Source: a virus. From it: a stretch of DNA of 13,309 nt. A program made the position numbers and the translations under genes. A model generated the notes under the pieces. The model was not told the DNA's origin, ran no database searches, and saw only the letters and a list, made by a program, of their open reading frames with translations. Every line of letters begins with the position of its first letter. The first letter of the stretch is position 1. Positions 406-13,083 of this stretch are shown here, piece after piece. The DNA is taken from UHGV virus genome UHGV-0315017; one strand, 5' to 3'.

Positions 406-482
406 CGGCACGTAGCGCAGCCTGGTAGCGCACCGTCATGGGGTGTCGGGGGTCGGAGGTTCAAATCCTCTCGTGCCGACCA
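406..482 (+). tRNA. proL: tRNA-Pro, anticodon GGG
   Basis: 77-nt sequence CGGCACGTAGCGCAGCCTGGTAGCGCACCGTCATGGGGTGTCGGGGGTCGGAGGTTCAAATCCTCTCGTGCCGACCA; cloverleaf features (GTAGCGCAGCCTGGTAGCGC D-arm, GGTTCAAATCC T-arm, U-GGG-G anticodon loop, encoded CCA). Confidence 0.9.
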
Positions 483-660: not shown

Positions 661-690
661 CCCTGTTTTTTCGTGTGGAATCATAGACAT

Positions 691-1932
691 ATGGCGAGAA
701 AAACACACCCATTAACCACAGTGCAGATCAAAGCAGCCAGACCAGCGCAAAAGGAGTACACCCTGCAGGACGGCGGAGGGCTTTTTCTCCTGGTCAAACC
801 GTCTGGATCAAAACTCTGGAGATTTTCCTACTACCGACCATCGGACAAAAAAAGAATATTGCTGAGTTTTGGATCGCTTGAAGATGTTTCCCTGGCTGAT
901 GCCAGAAAACGCCGTAGCGAGTACAGGACGTTAATCAGTGCCGGAACTGACCCGCAGGACCACGAGAGGCAAAAAAGAGAGACAGAGGCCCGAAGACAAG
1001 GGAACACGTTCGAAAATGTGGCGGCGGCATGGTACCAGGTGAAAATCAGCCAGAATCTGGCCCCCAACACGATTAAAGACATCTGGCGTTCGCTGGATAA
1101 ATATGTATTCCCGTTCATCGGCAACACGCCAATAGATACCCTCACCGCCCGAAGGTTCGTTGAAGTGCTTACCCCCATCAAGGAGCGCGGCAACCTGGAA
1201 ACACTCAAGCGGGTTTTACAGCGCGTTAATGAGGTAATGGATTACGCCGCCAACAGTGGGCTGATTGATGCCAATCCGGCTATGAATGTGCGTAAGGCGT
1301 TTCCCTCACCTGTAAAAAAACATATGCCAACAATCCGCCCCGAACAGCTGCCGGAGCTTATGCAGGCTTTATCAGTATCGGCAACAGAACGGCAGACCAG
1401 ATTACTGATTGAATGGCAGTTACTGACCGTAACCCGTCCCGCCGAAGCGTCATCAACGCGGTGGGATGAAATCAACCTGGACGCGAAGCAATGGACGATA
1501 CCTGCCGGACGCATGAAGATGCGCAGGGATCACGTTATCCCGCTTTCCGGTCAGGCTATGGCGGTGCTGGAGGCCATGAAACCAATCAGCCACCACCGCA
1601 ATTACGTTTTCCCAAGTCTGAAAGACCCACAGCAGCCGATGAACAGCCAGACAGCTAACGCAGCATTGCGGCGTATGGGATTCGCTGGCGTGCTGGTGTC
1701 TCATGGATTACGCGCCATATTCAGCACAGCAGCGAACGAGGAAGGATTCGAGCCGGACGTAATAGAGGCGGCACTTGCCCACGTCGACACCAACGAAGTT
1801 AGACGGGCATACAACCGGAGCAACTACATAGAAAAACGCATCGTGCTGATGCGCTGGTGGGGCGAATTTGTCGAGGCTGCGGCGACGGGCGTAACCCTCG
1901 CCAGTGGTAAAAGGGGTATCCGAGCCGTGTAG
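691..1932 (+). CDS. int: Tyrosine recombinase / integrase, P4 type
   Basis: N-terminal region (LTTVQIKAARP...YTLQDGGGLFLLVKPSGSKLWRFSYY) typical of P4-family integrases; C-terminal catalytic region with HGLR and terminal Tyr motifs (VSHGLRAIFSTAA...AYNRSNY). ATG at 691 preferred over GTG at 673 from the ORF track. Confidence 0.9.
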   Translation: MARKTHPLTTVQIKAARPAQKEYTLQDGGGLFLLVKPSGSKLWRFSYYRPSDKKRILLSFGSLEDVSLADARKRRSEYRTLISAGTDPQDHERQKRETEARRQGNTFENVAAAWYQVKISQNLAPNTIKDIWRSLDKYVFPFIGNTPIDTLTARRFVEVLTPIKERGNLETLKRVLQRVNEVMDYAANSGLIDANPAMNVRKAFPSPVKKHMPTIRPEQLPELMQALSVSATERQTRLLIEWQLLTVTRPAEASSTRWDEINLDAKQWTIPAGRMKMRRDHVIPLSGQAMAVLEAMKPISHHRNYVFPSLKDPQQPMNSQTANAALRRMGFAGVLVSHGLRAIFSTAANEEGFEPDVIEAALAHVDTNEVRRAYNRSNYIEKRIVLMRWWGEFVEAAATGVTLASGKRGIRAV

Positions 1933-2428: not shown

Positions 2429-2635
2429 ATGGAAGCAATCAGAAAAATTATCTTTCGCCAGGAAGTAAAAAAAATTATCCACATCAAGGCAGACAGCACG
2501 CTGCAAAGCATGATCAACGCCGGAGAATTTCCGCAGGGTTTTCGCGTTGGTTTACGCCGTCGCGGATGGTATGAGGATGATGTGTTGGCCTGGCAGAAAG
2601 AACGCGAACAGGAAGCACGCGGAACGGCTGCTTAA
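2429..2635 (+). CDS. alpA: AlpA-family (prophage regulatory / excisionase-like) helix-turn-helix protein
   Basis: 68 aa; spacing of conserved residues (STL..I..G.FP....LG.R..GW.E.DV..W) matches the AlpA/Xis-like family as recalled; position after int is typical for P4-like and PICI elements. Confidence 0.75.
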   Translation: MEAIRKIIFRQEVKKIIHIKADSTLQSMINAGEFPQGFRVGLRRRGWYEDDVLAWQKEREQEARGTAA

Positions 2636-2660: not shown

Positions 2661-2688
2661 GAAAAAAGCGGCCCCGATATGGAGCCGC
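2661..2688 (-). terminator. Probable terminator for the leftward RHH operon
   Basis: GCGGC / GCCGC stem with 11-nt loop; on the minus strand it is followed by a T6 run (plus-strand CGAAAAAA at 2661-2667). Confidence 0.45.
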
Positions 2689-2783
2689 CTTTCTGAACAA
2701 TTAACCCGCTGCGCCTTATGTGTATGTGATCCCAAACATAAGCACGGGGATGATAGCCGCTATCAGGCTGGTGGGCAATGCAA

Positions 2784-2972
2784 TCAGTCTGGTTCAGTTC
2801 GTTGCCATACCTGCAATGAGCGCTTTTCCCTATACTCTTTAAGGAATTGCTCAAGGGCAAAAGCACATGGCGCGAATCTTTCTGATTCATGCTCTATCTT
2901 TCTGCGCCGTCTTTTCCGTGCCGGTGATAATGTTTTGGTCAATTCTTTATCAGTCATTGTGTTGTCCTGCAT
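2784..2972 (-). CDS. Hypothetical basic small protein, downstream partner of the RHH gene (alternative start at 2957 has a better SD)
   Basis: 62-aa ORF with KRRRRK basic patch; ATG at 2957 is preceded by AGGAC; convergent with alpA and ends before the terminator at 2661-2688. Confidence 0.4.
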   Translation of the reverse strand: MQDNTMTDKELTKTLSPARKRRRRKIEHESERFAPCAFALEQFLKEYREKRSLQVWQRTEPD

Positions 2973-3014
2973 AGCAATGCGCCGTAATACCTCACACCAC
3001 GGCGCTGATAGTGA

Positions 3015-3194
3015 TTATTCTGATTCTTTGGCCTTGCGGCGCTGGCGGCGTTTGATCTCGCCTTCAAGTGCCGAAACGATAAATTGCCCTGTACTTTCGC
3101 CATCTTCCTTTAAATTTTCTACAGCATCAGCTATTGCGTGAGGTACTCGAGCCTCAAGCTTTTTGGATTTTGCATTAACTGCTTTTGTTGCCAT
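3015..3194 (-). CDS. Ribbon-helix-helix (CopG/Arc-like) DNA-binding protein, candidate island repressor
   Basis: Internal start MATKAVNAKSKKLEARVPHAIADAVENLKEDGESTGQFIVSALEGEI: basic beta-strand then two helices; GAGGAA SD 7 nt upstream of the ATG at 3194. The ORF-track 5' extension to 3323 is rejected. Confidence 0.65.
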   Translation of the reverse strand: MATKAVNAKSKKLEARVPHAIADAVENLKEDGESTGQFIVSALEGEIKRRQRRKAKESE

Positions 3195-3363
3195 ATCTGA
3201 TTTCCTCGTTATTAGGTGGCTGACAGTATACACACAAGAAAACGGAAAAACACTATTGACGTGGCTGACACCTTTATCAAGGTAATCGATGAAAAGACAA
3301 AGCCCCGCAAGTGTCGTTACCACTCGCAGGGCTTCTAACCAACAACGTAAACTAGGAGCCGTT
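3195..3363. promoter_or_regulatory. Divergent promoter region with direct repeats GTGGCTGACA (3215-3224 and 3260-3269)
   Basis: One repeat overlaps a rightward TTGACG -35-like hexamer, the other lies beside a leftward TATACT -10-like hexamer. Confidence 0.5.
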
Positions 3364-3561
3364 ATGGTTGCTGTAAATCATATACCACACCTTGTACACA
3401 CACAAACGGCCTTTGTGTGGCGTTTTCTGGCACTGAGTGCCGGAGAATCTCAAATCATCCACGTAACCGCCTGGACGGAACGCGAAGCGCGTGGCCGTTG
3501 CCCGTCCGGTTGTGTTGCAGTATTCGCCGCCCGTATTCGTCAGGGGTCACATCATGCGTAA
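3364..3561 (+). CDS. Hypothetical small protein, paralog A (65 aa)
   Basis: AGGAG SD 7 nt upstream; shares FVWRF...TEREAR...ARIRQG motifs with the product of 3848-4015. Confidence 0.5.
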   Translation: MVAVNHIPHLVHTQTAFVWRFLALSAGESQIIHVTAWTEREARGRCPSGCVAVFAARIRQGSHHA

Positions 3562-3639
3562 AAACCGCTTGCAAAAAATTATAACGGGGCTGTATGCTTC
3601 CCCCGTCGCCCACATGGCGACCGGGTTTAGCAGCCTGAA

Positions 3640-3683
3640 TACTGTAGCGGACAGCCGCTTATATTCCGATATGCGGTTTTTTT
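3640..3683 (+). terminator. Hairpin plus T-run between the two paralog genes
   Basis: AGCGGACAGCCGCT and CCGC..ATAT/ATATGCGG stems followed by TTTTTTT (3677-3683). Confidence 0.4.
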
Positions 3684-3847
3684 GTGTCCGTAAGCCTACC
3701 CATACCCGCATTATGGCGGGGCGTAACGGGGGAGCCTTTGCGCTCGCTGGTTCCTACAGTGCCAGTCTGCTAACCCTGTTACGTCTCGCCACCCCGTTTA
3801 GCAGCGTAGTAGCGAGACTCCTTAAAATTACTGTAGGAGCCTTTCAC

Positions 3848-4015
3848 ATGGCTGTATCCGCACGCCCTTACTTTGTCTGGCGCTTTATGCAGTGCCAGGA
3901 AAAACAAACATCACTCTTTACCGTCACGGCAGCAACAGAACGCGAAGCCCGCGCCCAGCTGCCGCACGCACATCTGATTTTTGTCGCCCGTATTCGTCAG
4001 GGGGTAGGCTTATGA
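3848..4015 (+). CDS. Hypothetical small protein, paralog B (55 aa)
   Basis: AGGAGCC SD 9 nt upstream of ATG 3848; C-terminal 46 aa align with paralog A. The 174-aa ORF-track call from 3491 is rejected. Confidence 0.5.
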   Translation: MAVSARPYFVWRFMQCQEKQTSLFTVTAATEREARAQLPHAHLIFVARIRQGVGL

Positions 4016-4687: not shown

Positions 4688-4987
4688 ATGAAACTTAAAT
4701 ATTCTGGCTTAACTGCCAGTGGCAAAACTCGCACTAAATTCATGCGCGGTGATATTTACCGCGACCAGTACGGCGGCACGGTAATGATTAAGGGCGTGGA
4801 GGAACGGCGCATCACCTACCGTCGTGAAGGCTACGAATATGATTGCGTGATGCCTGTTTATCAGTTTCGGCGTGATTTTTCTCTGGTACAGGCAGCGCCC
4901 CGCAGTAAACCAACCAGCAGGGAGAAAGCACGCGCCAATATTCAGGAAATAAAAAAGATGCTTAACGTATTCAGGGGTAAAAAATGA
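4688..4987 (+). CDS. Hypothetical protein (99 aa) immediately upstream of and coupled to the primase gene
   Basis: GGAGAA SD; stop overlaps the primase start (ATGA at 4984-4987). Confidence 0.55.
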   Translation: MKLKYSGLTASGKTRTKFMRGDIYRDQYGGTVMIKGVEERRITYRREGYEYDCVMPVYQFRRDFSLVQAAPRSKPTSREKARANIQEIKKMLNVFRGKK

Positions 4988-6732
4988 AACTGGCACCGAA
5001 CGTAAAAAAACAACCACGCGGAATAAAACACAAAGACACAGAGGTAATTATTTTCGCGGGTAGTGATGCGTGGGCACATGCAAAACAGTGGCAGGAGCAG
5101 GACGGCCCCGCATCCGGCGATAATGTGCCGCCTGTGTGGCTTGGGCCAAATCAGCTTGCCGAACTTGATGCACTGAAAATTGTTCCGGATGGAAAAAAAC
5201 GCGTAAGGCTGTACCAGGCCGGAGAACTGGATTTGGTGGAGACCAAAAAGATTGGTCAGAAGCTGGCGGCGGCAGATATTCAGGACGCAAATTTTTACCA
5301 CGAAGGAATGCACGTCCAGAAGTGTGAAAACTGGCGGCGCTATCTGAATGCTGAGCGTGAAAATATTGCCGCAGGGCTTACCATGCCGGAGCAGAAAAAT
5401 ACGCAACTGGCACAAATGGCAGACAGTGAGCGCGCGCAGCTGCTTGCCGAGCGCTTTGATGGCGTTTGTGTGCATCAGGAAAGTGAAATCGTTCACGTAT
5501 GGCGCGGCGGGGTATGGTGTCCGGTCAGCACAATGGAACTTAGCCGCGAAATGGTGGCGATCTATTCAGAGCACAGGGCCACTTTCAGCAAGCGCGTAAT
5601 CAATAACGCCGTGGAAGCGTTAAAAGTTATTGCCGAACCAATGGGCGAGCCGTCCGGCGATTTGCTGCCGTTCGCCAATGGTGCGCTTGACCTGAAAACG
5701 GGGGAATTTTCCCCGCACACGCCGGAGAACTGGATCACCACGCACAACGGCATTGAGTACACGCCACCAGCACCTGGGGAGAACATCCGCGATAACGCGC
5801 CAAACTTTCATAAATGGCTTAAGCACGCAGCCGGAAAAGACCCGCGCAAGATGATGCGTATATGTGCCGCGCTGTACATGATTATGGCGAACCGGTACGA
5901 CTGGCAGATGTTTATTGAGGCCACCGGAGACGGCGGGAGCGGTAAAAGTACATTCACGCACATAGCCAGCCTTCTGGCAGGGAAACAGAACACGGTAAGC
6001 GCTGAAATGACATCGCTTGATGATGCTGGTGGACGTGCGCAGGTTGTCGGGAGTCGTCTTATCGTCCTGGCTGACCAGCCGAAATATACAGGCGAAGGAA
6101 CGGGCATCAAGAAAATCACGGGCGGTGACCCCGTGGAAATTAACCCGAAATACGAAAAGCGTTTCACGGCTGTAATCAGGGCGGTGGTGCTGGCGACCAA
6201 CAATAACCCGATGATATTCACCGAACGGGCCGGAGGTGTGGCACGTCGTCGCGTGATTTTCCGTTTCGACAATATCGTCAGTGAGGCCGAAAAAGACAGG
6301 GAGCTACCGGAAAAGATCGCGGCTGAAATCCCTGTCATTATCCGCCGATTGCTGGCGAACTTTACCGACCCTGAGAAGGCACGGGCTTTACTACTGGAAC
6401 AGCGTGACGGTGATGAAGCTCTGGCAATAAAGCAACAGACGGATCCGGTTATTGAGTTTTGCCAGTTCCTGAATTTTCTGGAGGAAGCACGCGGCCTGAT
6501 GATGGGCGGCGGTGGCGATTCAGTGAAGTACACGACCAGGAACAGCCTTTACCGCGTCTATCTGGCGTTTATGGCATACGCAGGCAGGAGCAAACCGCTA
6601 AACGTAAATGACTTTGGCAAGGCTATGAAGCCTGCCGCAAAAGTTTACGGACATGAATATATTACGCGGAAAGTTAAGGGGGTAACGCAGACTAACGCAA
6701 TAACAACAGACGAGTGCGACGCGTTTTTATAA
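4984..6732 (+). CDS. Replication initiator: primase / SF3 (D5-like) helicase, P4 alpha-like C-terminal region
   Basis: 582 aa with Walker A GDGGSGKST and downstream helicase-like motifs; size and position match the pri-rep genes of P4-like and PICI elements. Confidence 0.85.
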   Translation: MKLAPNVKKQPRGIKHKDTEVIIFAGSDAWAHAKQWQEQDGPASGDNVPPVWLGPNQLAELDALKIVPDGKKRVRLYQAGELDLVETKKIGQKLAAADIQDANFYHEGMHVQKCENWRRYLNAERENIAAGLTMPEQKNTQLAQMADSERAQLLAERFDGVCVHQESEIVHVWRGGVWCPVSTMELSREMVAIYSEHRATFSKRVINNAVEALKVIAEPMGEPSGDLLPFANGALDLKTGEFSPHTPENWITTHNGIEYTPPAPGENIRDNAPNFHKWLKHAAGKDPRKMMRICAALYMIMANRYDWQMFIEATGDGGSGKSTFTHIASLLAGKQNTVSAEMTSLDDAGGRAQVVGSRLIVLADQPKYTGEGTGIKKITGGDPVEINPKYEKRFTAVIRAVVLATNNNPMIFTERAGGVARRRVIFRFDNIVSEAEKDRELPEKIAAEIPVIIRRLLANFTDPEKARALLLEQRDGDEALAIKQQTDPVIEFCQFLNFLEEARGLMMGGGGDSVKYTTRNSLYRVYLAFMAYAGRSKPLNVNDFGKAMKPAAKVYGHEYITRKVKGVTQTNAITTDECDAFL

Positions 6733-7706: not shown

Positions 7707-7714
7707 ACGCACAG

Positions 7715-7736
7715 GCCGGAGAAAATCCGGCTTTTT
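7715..7736 (+). terminator. Rho-independent terminator after ssb
   Basis: GCCGGA gaaaa TCCGGC hairpin plus TTTTT. Confidence 0.75.
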
Positions 7737-7742
7737 GTATCC

Positions 7743-9565: not shown

Positions 9566-9979
9566 ATGGCAACGAATGAAAGCATCATGACGCTACCGCT
9601 GGCGAGTAAATTTAAAGCCGAAGCGCGGGCAATGGCTGACAGAGGTTTATCAACCTATGAGGCCGTATATCAACTAAACAAACTGGAAGAGCAGGACAAG
9701 CCGCGCGCTGATGCGATTATGGCGCTTCATGAGCATAAAGACTATCAGCCGCTGTTGCGTGCAATGGCAAACGTGCCTTGTATCGATGTTGGTACGGCTA
9801 AAAGCATCCTTAGCATGACCATAGAGCAGGAACGCCAGAAGGTTGCACCAGAGCTTACCGCAGCCTTTGAAAACTTTATGGACATGCACAGCCCGCAAGC
9901 CGTATCAGCTGGCATGGCATACGATGGCAGAAACCAGGGCGATGACGGCGACATCGATCGCATACTGAAAACCATCTGA
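9566..9979 (+). CDS. Hypothetical protein (137 aa) between the decoration gene and cos
   Basis: AGGGGGA SD; acidic C-terminus (QGDDGDIDRILKTI); no family recognised. Confidence 0.6.
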   Translation: MATNESIMTLPLASKFKAEARAMADRGLSTYEAVYQLNKLEEQDKPRADAIMALHEHKDYQPLLRAMANVPCIDVGTAKSILSMTIEQERQKVAPELTAAFENFMDMHSPQAVSAGMAYDGRNQGDDGDIDRILKTI

Positions 9980-9985
9980 GACAAG

Positions 9986-10009
9986 GCCGGAGAAATCCGG
10001 CTTTTTTTT
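9986..10009 (+). terminator. Rho-independent terminator (near-duplicate of the 7715-7736 hairpin)
   Basis: GCCGGA gaaa TCCGGC plus TTTTTTTT. Confidence 0.8.
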
Positions 10010-10010
10010 A

Positions 10011-11167: not shown

Positions 11168-11231
11168 CTGGTTGATATTTTCGGAAACCTCAATTTGAGG
11201 AGGCCGGAAGCGTCACCCTTTAGATTCTGAA

Positions 11232-11246
11232 TGGTGATAATCACCA
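11232..11246. repeat. 15-bp palindrome TGGTGATAATCACCA (copy 1 of 3)
   Basis: Perfect palindrome; flanked CTGAA...CGCC. Confidence 0.6.
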
Positions 11247-11255
11247 CGCCCAATC

Positions 11256-11290: not shown

Positions 11291-11399
11291 AAAAGACGGT
11301 TTAACCGTTAATTAAAAATCGACGGGATTTTGTGTTTTCCGGACGACGTGGCCAACGTCATTTTTTAGCGAAAAATTCTGATTAAGGTCATTGTCTGAA

Positions 11400-11414
11400 T
11401 GGTCATAATGACCA
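11400..11414. repeat. 15-bp palindrome TGGTCATAATGACCA (copy 2 of 3)
   Basis: Perfect palindrome, preceded by CTGAA like copy 1. Confidence 0.6.
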
Positions 11415-11494
11415 CGCAGACCATCAAGGCAACCATAACGATTTTCGTTACGGTTGATGTGTGCCTTCGTCCGGCATTCGGACGATATAAGGGA

Positions 11495-11509
11495 TGGTCA
11501 TAATGACCA
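11495..11509. repeat. 15-bp palindrome TGGTCATAATGACCA (copy 3 of 3)
   Basis: Identical to copy 2. Confidence 0.6.
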
Positions 11510-11657
11510 CTCCTACAGAACAGGTAAAACCCACCAGCCTGATTAACAGTTAACCGGAAAAAAATCCGGCATGGGGGGGGAGTGGTTAGCCACGAACAAC
11601 GAATAAGCTGGACACCGCGCCCCCTCTCACGCAGAGAAAAAATTACCGTTTCGTAGT

Positions 11658-11822: not shown

Positions 11823-11927
11823 GAACATCCACCAGCTTAAAAACGAATGAGCGAAAAAAAATCCAGGTAGAATCATGGAAGTCGCTAGGGCAATCGCCGT
11901 TTAAATTGTGCATTTTTTCAGCAAATT

Positions 11928-11952
11928 ATTTTAGTTATACGTTTGGTTATAC
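11928..11952 (+). repeat. Arm-type direct repeat TTTTAGTTATACGTTTGGTTATACGG, partner of 604-628
   Basis: 24 of 25 positions identical to the left-end copy. Confidence 0.55.
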
Positions 11953-12003
11953 GGTTTAAAAGTTGAATCAATAATATTTATTAAAATCATGCGGTTACAC
12001 GCT

Positions 12004-12129: not shown

Positions 12130-13083
12130 TCAGAACGTCCAGACTACACCCGCCTGAGTTGTGCTGCTTTCTTCACGGGAGAAACGACTATCGATACCGA
12201 GCGTCAGCCCCGTCAATGTTTGCTCAAAGCCAGCGCCTGCATCAGTGGTCACGTCGTTGCGGCTGTTAATTGCCGAACTCCACATCGCCGTATCGTAATT
12301 AACGCCTTTTACGCTACCAAGACGCCCACGCACGGTGTCCAGTTCTGCATCAAATACCAGCGGTTGTGCTGCCGCCATATTCAGCACATCCGTGGTTGAA
12401 GGGGTCATTTGTGCGCGATTCTCTGCGAGACTCCAGCTATGGTTGCCATTATCCAGCAAGGTATATTCATACGTACTGATATCAACAACGCTTCCGGCAT
12501 TGCCCAACGTAAATGCAGCATCACCGCCGCCCGTTGTTACCAGTGTAAGGCTATCTCCTGCTGCCGGGCTGGCACCGGTGTCCGTCACGAATATTTTGAA
12601 ATCACCTGTTGCTTTAACCTCCAGTAGTCCTCCCTTTTCTATAACGGCAAAGACGGCAATCCCATCTTTTTCAACAATTAAGCGCCCGCCTTTAATCGTG
12701 GGATCATTCGCCGCGCCATAAACCTGTAGCACTCCATTATTGATCGTAGTCTGATTTACCGCGCCACCCATTTGAACAATTTGATAACCATCATTTAATA
12801 CTGCGTATTCTGCGGTGCCATTTATTTCAACGTACTGATATCCCCCGTTAATTTCAGTATTACTACTTACACCAAATTCTTATATATGCTGTTCTCCGCC
12901 AGGATTGATTTTCGTATTATTGGCGGTCCAATAAACCAGCTGGATATCTTTTTCCAGGACAACACCATCAACTGGCTCACCATACTCAACAGTTGATGCC
13001 AATGCTATGGGCGAATATAACGCTGTAGCCACCAGAACAGATATTGCGGAACGACAAAGAGAAACAGAACCAGATTGGTGCAT
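12130..13083 (-). pseudogene. Autotransporter/adhesin-like gene interrupted by an in-frame TAA (12880-12882); possibly a yejO-type locus
   Basis: ORFs 12880-13083 (signal-peptide-like N-terminus) and 12130-12771 (Gly/Thr-rich beta-helix-like repeats ending ...VVWTF) are in the same frame, separated by a single TAA. The total length is too short for a complete autotransporter. Confidence 0.5.

Follow-up and report, generated by a model that had tools for sequence, protein, structure and literature searches.

In phage P22, the immI region contains the ribbon-helix-helix (RHH) repressors Mnt and Arc, the divergent promoters P_ant and P_mnt, and the antisense RNA sar. In this study, we analysed a small RHH gene and the operon divergent from it in a stretch of 13,309 nucleotides from the virus genome UHGV-0315017 (the window), which contains an Escherichia coli satellite of about 11.3 kb, a phage-inducible chromosomal island (PICI) of the EcCICFT073 type. 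Gram-negative PICIs are vehicles for the spread of virulence and defence genes; current descriptions of how they are controlled are activator-only, with AlpA as the activator, and the existence of a repressor is regarded as "unclear". In EcCICFT073, the helper switches on alpA, induction and transfer both need AlpA (PMC6092414), and over-expression of AlpA alone leads to uncontrolled replication (PMC6092414). EcCIEDL933 is likewise induced by AlpA over-expression. EcCICFT073 carries the same RHH module as the window. We estimate a probability of about two in three that the RHH protein is a repressor of the YlcI/YnfO family acting on GTG-N5-CAC operators, which in this island would be GTGTCAGCCAC. 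It is the strongest candidate so far for the repressor regarded as "missing" in the phage-inducible islands of Gram-negative bacteria.

The RHH protein of the window matched the NCBIfam model YlcI_YnfO_N (NF041551) with 60.6 bits over residues 9-50 (cut-off, 30), and it had no Pfam match. The 45 homologues had in common an N-terminal segment with basic residues in alternation and a second helix of amphipathic character, and G32-E33-S34 was invariant or nearly so, giving the G-x-S/T/N turn and the β-α-α fold of about 45 residues that characterize the MetJ/Arc/CopG superfamily. In the window protein, residues 11-17 (KKLEARV) form the β-strand, the turn G-E-S lies at residues 32-34, and the C-terminal tail is basic. 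An earlier, sequence-only reading of the locus had taken this reading frame for an RHH gene transcribed away from the small-protein/primase operon; the model match and the conserved turn bore out the first point, and the gene layout (Table 1) the second. The subfamily was narrow, with 97 representatives in 1.84 billion clusters, and no protein match to it was found among 50,697 phage records; phage records gave no DNA match either. Literature searches on YlcI/YnfO, PICI repressors, satellite RHH proteins, and PICI antisense RNA yielded nothing relevant; YlcI is named as a regulator in none of the papers found, and a 2026 survey calls the YlcI-type protein merely a "prophage-associated protein". 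Repression by this protein, if true, would be the first function for the YlcI/YnfO family.

Table 1 Features of the RHH locus and its surroundings in the window (aa, amino acids; ORF, open reading frame; SL, stem-loop; P_L and P_R, leftward and rightward promoters).
Feature	Position	Strand	Remarks
tRNA-Pro(GGG)	406-482		adjoins the island
Tyrosine integrase	673-1932	+	
AlpA-like HTH_17 protein	2429-2635	+	weak match
Terminator-like hairpin with T6	2662-2694	-	ends the leftward RHH-ORF transcript; weak rightward
Small basic ORF	2784-2972	-	62 aa; 57 aa if started at the second ATG (2957)
ylcI-like RHH gene	3015-3194	-	59 aa
Shine-Dalgarno GAGGAA of the RHH gene	3202-3207	-	read from the sequence
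Box C, CTGTCAGCCAC on the minus strand	3216-3226	-	offset -32 from ATG fixed in about 60 loci; locus-specific core
P_L -10 TATACT (RHH gene promoter)	3225-3230	-	-35 weak, T-rich
P_R -35 TTGACG (icd-like to primase operon)	3256-3261	+	
Box B, GTGGCTGACAC	3261-3271	+	fills the P_R spacer; junction of the 25-bp deletion
SL2	3299-3335	-	15-bp GC-rich hairpin, then T-run at 3290-3298; leftward intrinsic terminator
SL1	3337-3369	-	loop complementary to AGGAG (3354-3358), Shine-Dalgarno of the first rightward gene
icd1	3364-3561	+	65 aa, Icd-like, first rightward gene; NCBIfam NF033153, 62.6 bits
Candidate antisense -10 TATGAT	3377-3382	-	putative; within icd1 codons 5-7
a1/b1 target-like sequences	3592-3641	+	Rfam RF03163, 45.5 bits, just below the gathering score of 46.7; E 5.7e-9
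C4-type antisense immunity RNA (P1 C4 / P4 CI class)	3709-3796	+	RF01695, 71.5 bits, gathering score 45; E 1.2e-12
b2 target, CGTTTAGCAG	3795-3804	+	complementary to C4 loop
a2 target, ACTGTAGGAGCC	3830-3841	+	complementary to C4 loop; covers the icd2 Shine-Dalgarno
icd2, second icd-like gene	3848-4015	+	ATG at 3848; Icd-like domain
D5-type primase	4984-6732		

Subsequently, the repeats between the two divergent genes were examined. The 10-mer GTGGCTGACA occurred exactly at 3216-3225 and 3261-3270, and these were its only two exact copies. When up to one mismatch was allowed, the count was 3 where 0.68 was expected, a number also reached by 3 of 200 shuffled sequences; hence, from the window alone, a chance origin of the repeat was only moderately excluded. 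The boxes found elsewhere in the window all had two mismatches and were at chance level (4 outside the locus, against 3.1 in total per shuffled window). The functional unit was an 11-mer with a pseudo-palindromic GTG...CAC structure, present as GTGGCTGACAC in box B and, in plus-strand letters, as GTGGCTGACAG at box C.

The significance of the boxes became clear from related loci. A pattern search of 185,579 species genomes yielded 67 loci (L002-L068) with a relative of the RHH gene, from Escherichia, Xenorhabdus, Pectobacterium, Yersinia, Serratia, Proteus, Klebsiella, Enterobacter, Kosakonia, Edwardsiella, and others. Nearly all of them shared one layout. Read in the direction of the RHH gene, a small divergent gene has its start first, and a GC-rich hairpin and its T-run come next; box A follows, then box B, which runs into GTCAA (TTGAC, the divergent -35), and after these a T-rich stretch, TATACT-G-box C, a Shine-Dalgarno sequence, and ATG. 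About 60 loci, belonging to more than 15 genera, each had two or three GTG-N5-CAC boxes, whose offsets relative to the ATG were fixed (about -102, -77, and -32). The N5 core was equal in all copies of one locus and different between loci. That the two 10-mers of the window are a chance repeat in an intergenic region of mixed AT and GC content would fit their modest excess in the window; given locus-specific repeats at the same positions in about 60 loci, this explanation has a negligible probability and is already refuted by the comparative data. Indeed, this conservation and the covariation described below place the repeats far beyond chance.

The β-strand is the DNA-reading element in the RHH superfamily, and the box core mapped one-to-one onto RHH residues 11-17, which form this strand. 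KKLEARV was paired with GTGTCAGCCAC in E. coli, ten Xenorhabdus loci, and Pectobacterium polonicum, and QMTTVRI with GTGAAATACAC in 20 loci of nine genera. The other pairs were KRFDVRV with GTGTC(G/C)GACAC, QQLNARF with GTGAATCGCAC, LQVSVRL with GTGAACACCAC, QS(V/I)T(A/V)R(I/V) with GTGTCTTACAC, QT(I/L/V)AARV with GTGTTGAACAC, and, in EcCICFT073, QALKARV with GTGTGGCCCAC. The mean core distance was 0.36 of 5 positions within loci and 3.30 of 5 between loci that differ in residues 11-17. Cores were identical in 123 of the 135 locus pairs with the same residues 11-17, against 37 of the 1191 pairs with different ones; those of the latter that were inspected differ by one or two strand residues. 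Strand and matching core together define at least 15 specificity classes.

The module was also found to have been exchanged as a unit. Between the window and EcCICFT073, identity was 96-100% over the small downstream ORF and 100% in the RHH C-terminal tail and the hairpin, whereas it was merely 53-76% over the N-terminal part of RHH and the boxes, with mosaic breakpoints between these segments. Conversely, E. coli 042 has RHH and boxes identical to those of the window together with a different AlpA, an integrase that is only 25% identical, and, where the window has its D5 primase, a RepA helicase. This comparison bears on the question of which protein reads the boxes. AlpA is a DNA-binding activator of island genes and the repeats adjoin the replication operon, so that AlpA, the Icd-like protein, or a replication initiator with the boxes as its iterons might be considered instead of RHH. 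AlpA, the integrase, and the replication protein are excluded as readers because E. coli 042 shares the RHH and the boxes and not these proteins; the N-terminus of the Icd-like protein is conserved across loci whose boxes differ, and the core tracks the RHH strand. We therefore consider it highly improbable that another protein reads the boxes. On the comparative evidence, the core follows RHH residues 11-17, not AlpA, integrase, or replication protein, and the RHH protein remains the favoured reader. Strand and core would accordingly constitute at least 15 "immunity types" that are swapped between islands as a cassette. A further instance of cassette behaviour is the EDL933 island of E. coli O157:H7 (L081, 1854-2100), in which the flanks are kept (small ORF, hairpin, and icd-like gene), and the slot between them holds an unannotated, unrelated Arc-like RHH protein of 63 aa with its own repeat, GGTGGTCACC, present twice; another locus (L078, 1569-1742) has both kinds of RHH gene in tandem.

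We then placed the boxes on the promoters. Of 61 distinct upstream regions, 57 had TTGAnn at the offset of the P_R -35, and in about 55 a TAnnnT lay 16-18 nt downstream of it; at the P_L offset, 45 of the 61 had TATACT and 56 had TAnnnT. From these conserved TTGAnn and TAnnnT offsets, box B falls within the P_R spacer and box A on the P_R -10/+1 region. Box C takes in the predicted start site and the final 2 nt of the P_L -10, and for this reason it is the presumed site of autoregulation. The sequence-only reading had placed one repeat over a rightward -35-like hexamer and the other beside a leftward -10-like hexamer, and both assignments held, the positions of the hexamers being conserved in relatives. 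Its proposal that the repeats are candidate operators was likewise strengthened by their location on the P_R spacer and on the -10/+1 region of the RHH gene's own promoter, with a core that covaries with the RHH β-strand. Another leftward promoter suggested by a scan, TTGATA-17-AATAGT (3280 to 3252), was rejected because it is not conserved in relatives.

In the proposed mechanism, the normal module consists of three boxes on two back-to-back promoters, with box B filling the P_R spacer, box A on the P_R -10/+1, and box C on the P_L -10/+1. P_R would drive the replication operon, which comprises the icd-like gene, small ORFs, DUF4222, and the primase. An Icd-like gene was first after P_R in most loci whose first ORF was read in frame, and DUF4222 and a primase or helicase followed further downstream in many loci. 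Because the boxes cover both P_R and P_L, RHH would keep the early replication operon off and limit its own synthesis; the geometry of the boxes thus looks like repression of P_R combined with negative autoregulation.

The two direct copies reported by the sequence-only reading are real, and the comparison revealed them to be a derived state of a module that normally has three operators. E. coli 042 and 2011C-3911, which have the same RHH type, have three boxes and a good P_R, with TTGACG, 17 nt, TAATAT, and box A directly after. The window lacks exactly 25 bp, CCGTTACTAATATAGTGGCTGACAC, which in these relatives contain the P_R -10 (TAATAT) and box A; such a loss is the product that would be expected from recombination between the direct repeats A and B. 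No acceptable rightward -10 was found in the window, the best being CAAGGT with 2 of 6 positions. The two-box form was matched at 99% or more by 3 E. coli genomes only, and the sampled full-length matches (H44-H49) had the 25-bp-longer, three-box form. The same kind of loss occurred independently in a Xenorhabdus locus (L006). Since the deletion took both the -10 and box A, P_R of the window is probably crippled, this early promoter being likely weak or dead.

Furthermore, a leftward structured RNA, antisense to the ribosome site of the first rightward gene, was predicted at 3291-3370. An alignment of 51 loci showed two stem-loops with 24 pairs, 15 of which had compensatory double changes. In SL2 such changes were found in 11 of 14 pairs, and this hairpin was more stable in the leftward direction in 52 of 53 loci (mean, -23.8 versus -16.5 kcal/mol). 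Bases complementary to the start codon of the first P_R gene lie in the stem of SL1. When the consensus was read leftward, 96.1% of the cells were paired; shuffles gave 86.1%, none of 500 reaching the observed value, and slid controls 32-50%. When it was read as a rightward RNA, 81.2% were paired, and the difference was almost entirely due to G-U pairs becoming A-C mismatches. For SL1, the values were 96.9% leftward versus 77.4% rightward. In the window, the 84-mer folded with -35.5 kcal/mol (z, -4.9) leftward and -22.1 kcal/mol (z, -1.6) rightward. A T-A-n-n-n-T hexamer 7-9 bases upstream of the first stem was invariant or at least 90% conserved over three Icd-like N-terminal coding contexts. 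From the strand-specific conserved stems, the anti-Shine-Dalgarno loop, the terminator, and the conserved hexamer, we predict a cis-antisense RNA of about 80 nt (about 3370 to 3291), which, if expressed, would keep the first early gene from being translated. It had no match to an Rfam family.

A second RNA lies further downstream in the rightward operon. The C4-type element of the window combines a covariance-model match with flanking a and b targets, one set of which lies over the downstream ribosome site, as in the C4/CI class (Table 1). C4 and isrK matches in Gram-negative PICIs have been noted before (PMC10111431). The ORF at 3554-4015 is named "ash family protein" in related RefSeq records; this is probably translation across the C4 RNA. 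We also asked whether C4 is a conserved partner of RHH and rejected this, because it was absent from all 14 other related loci scanned. Post-transcriptional control would thus comprise the antisense RNA at the start of the first P_R gene and, in this island only, C4 at the icd2 ribosome site. The sequence-only reading, which had ascribed control of the rightward operon to RHH, was supported as to that layer and incomplete, as it contained neither of the two RNAs.

These RNAs are relevant to the view that RHH is a minor autoregulator or an Arc/Cro-like modulator, with silencing produced by C4, the antisense RNA, and the absence of AlpA. AlpA is necessary for induction and, when over-expressed, sufficient; the C4 module is complete in the window, and the antisense element is as strongly conserved as the boxes. 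However, C4 was missing from the 14 other loci scanned, whereas RHH and boxes were always present, two of the three boxes are on P_R (spacer and -10/+1) rather than on the RHH gene's own promoter, and a spread over 15 or more specificity classes is a typical trait of immunity repressors. We consider such a minor role rather unlikely and retain RHH as a repressor of P_R.

Several points weigh against a repressor of P_R. For P_L, no -35 can be recognised. In the window itself, P_R has no -10, so that its repression may be moot there. For the antisense RNA, the promoter amounts to the conserved -10 alone, with no good -35. Binding of RHH to the boxes and repression of P_R are deduced from sequence comparison, and part of the covariation is co-inheritance because the gene and the boxes lie less than 100 bp apart; on the other side, the concerted change of the copies within a locus, the mosaic breakpoints, and the comparison with E. 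coli 042 argue for more than linkage. Studies of EcCICFT073 deletions never flagged the RHH gene. Finally, because AlpA over-expression induces the RHH-bearing EcCICFT073 and EcCIEDL933, RHH is no unconditional lock.

The last point bears on the relief of repression. The sequence-only reading had envisaged a master repressor that silences the satellite until a helper signal arrives; direct relief by a helper, in the manner of Stl, was not supported, and published work has AlpA as the helper-responsive activator (PMC6092414). Because AlpA over-expression alone triggers replication, RHH repression would be overridden downstream of AlpA, and relief presumably runs through AlpA, direct binding of a helper protein to the repressor not being indicated. 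Two routes can be envisaged. In the first, rightward transcripts from P_alpA would cross the RHH operon in antisense, the terminator at 2662-2694 being strong in the leftward direction only. In the second, relief would be brought about by Bro-N or AntA/AntB (Ant-type) proteins that are encoded between alpA and the RHH gene in relatives. Such "antirepressor" genes converge on the RHH gene in three loci (L073, 1-1074; L076, 1-720; L074, 1499-1754), and the window keeps only a remnant of this region (about 2650-2766).

The small basic ORF downstream of the RHH gene was also examined. It likely starts at 2957, which is the start in the RefSeq annotation of CFT073 (WP_000130015.1). Five divergent E. 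coli versions have the core ERFAPCAFxLExFLKEY in common, with variable ends and an in-frame indel, and the ORF is probably a real gene. A coding-strand codon test of 2766-3014 did not discriminate between the strands: the E. coli copies are 97.5-98.8% identical, and in the one divergent copy, the minus frame and one plus frame were both open, each with about 66% amino-acid identity. Coding on the minus strand was settled by the motif conserved in the five divergent minus-strand versions. The ORF was absent from all 67 loci of other species and genera, in which RHH mostly forms a monocistronic unit, and it matched no Pfam or NCBIfam family, no toxin-specific library having been searched. Thus, the small basic protein of the sequence-only reading exists as an ORF and is probably genuine, and it turned out to be an E. 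coli-only addition outside the conserved module.

This result also affects the view of RHH and this ORF as a type II toxin-antitoxin or addiction pair, in which RHH would be an antitoxin autoregulating through the repeats. The gene order, with RHH first and a small gene second, and the operator at the RHH gene's own promoter would suit such a pair. It is weakened by the confinement of the second ORF to E. coli, since a toxin gene that is conserved and co-inherited downstream of RHH was not found; besides, RHH has only a basic tail and no C-terminal toxin-binding extension, two boxes are on the divergent promoter, and the second ORF belongs to no Pfam or NCBIfam family, within the limit of the search given above. 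We give an addiction pair only a slim chance and keep to RHH as a repressor of the divergent operon.

The remaining features of the window agreed with its assignment as a Gram-negative PICI. It contains int, alpA, a primase/replication module, a few phage-like late genes, and att bounds, within the range of about 10-15 kb of such islands. Imperfect direct repeats of 37 nt (592-628 and 11918-11954, 84% identical) flank the island beside tRNA-Pro(GGG) and are the probable attL and attR. The order of int, the alpA-like gene, the leftward RHH gene, and the rightward icd-like to primase operon was identical in EcCICFT073, and the gene order of the island agreed with those of E. coli 042 and EcCICFT073. 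Its other genes encode SSB, a lambda-E-like capsid protein, a D-like decoration protein, and an Nu1-like small terminase (TerS). A 17-nt palindrome, ATGGTCATAATGACCAC, is present in three copies near the right end of the island (11231-11247, 11399-11415, and 11494-11510) and is possibly a protein-binding, cos, or ori-related site. Two terminator-like hairpins of nearly the same sequence (AGGCCGGAGAAAATCCGGCTTTTT) stand after the SSB gene (7713-7739) and after ORF 9566-9979 (9984-10010). Beyond the right end, there is a yejO autotransporter fragment with a pertactin domain (12130-12771, minus strand). The Rfam int-alpA RNA motif (RF02996) was found between int and alpA in five relatives (L021, L026, L040, L045, and L061) and was not detected in the window at E values up to 1.

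We also observed an annotation problem at related loci. Long plus-strand ORFs are open across the antisense strand of the small ORF, the RHH gene, and the operators (L075, 1115-2035; L081, 1411-2154; L070, 6767-8053). RefSeq annotates a 306-aa "Icd-like" protein in the first and a 247-aa "hypothetical" protein in the second, omitting the RHH gene; in CFT073 (L070), the open 428-aa frame is unannotated and the RHH gene is annotated. A spurious long ORF on the opposite strand thus displaces the RHH gene in some RefSeq genomes.

[quoted passage not shown] They would occur as at least 15 hetero-immune types carried as cassettes, complemented by an antisense RNA that masks a ribosome site, and AlpA would override this double lock through convergent transcription or through Bro-N/Ant antirepressors. 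This wider proposal is possible, and we hold it with clearly less confidence than the repressor function itself. The repressor-operator cassette would also explain the coexistence of several related islands in one genome; up to 5 matching places were found per E. coli genome. With a repressor-operator cassette in the model island EcCICFT073, a readable code of protein-DNA specificity, and a candidate antisense RNA, the question of a repressor becomes testable.

The locus was finally compared with known systems. Like Stl and Rpr of the Staphylococcus aureus pathogenicity islands (SaPIs) and Gram-positive PICIs (PMC6092414), the RHH gene is located between the integration and replication modules, on the int-proximal side, and divergent from the operon for replication, which in those islands is the xis/pri-rep operon; it would likewise keep the satellite quiescent, and it has many allelic specificities. 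In contrast, Stl and Rpr are larger helix-turn-helix proteins co-oriented with int, whereas RHH has a different fold, and here int and alpA, both on the plus strand, are directed towards the RHH gene. A helper protein inactivates Stl by binding to it directly, whereas the known helper-responsive step of the present islands is alpA transcription. The K-12 proteins YlcI (DLP12) and YnfO (Qin) share the N-terminal model NF041551, the small size, and the location in a prophage or island. However, K-12 ylcI is divergent from nohD with the cos region between them, and has no GTG-N5-CAC triplet, icd-like gene, or hairpin; because of this different context, it was rejected as a model of the module. 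The C4 RNA with its a1b1 and a2/b2 targets before an icd-like gene has the arrangement of P1 immI and P4 CI, but it is a separate, optional layer here, in which RHH and the boxes are not involved.

The closest functional analogue is the immI region of P22. In both cases a small RHH repressor, as proposed here, is divergent from the operon that it controls, the operators overlap back-to-back promoters, and a short antisense RNA, which is predicted in the present locus, is directed against the ribosome site of a gene of the controlled operon. The two differ in that no sequence similarity is detectable between them, in that the present locus has three 11-bp GTG-N5-CAC boxes versus one operator of 17-21 bp in P22, and in that the controlled operon belongs here to a satellite and encodes Icd-like proteins and a primase, whereas P22 is a phage and the product is an antirepressor. 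Taken together, an RHH immunity repressor with its operators is a known kind of regulator, and a member of the YlcI/YnfO family as a candidate for this role is new.

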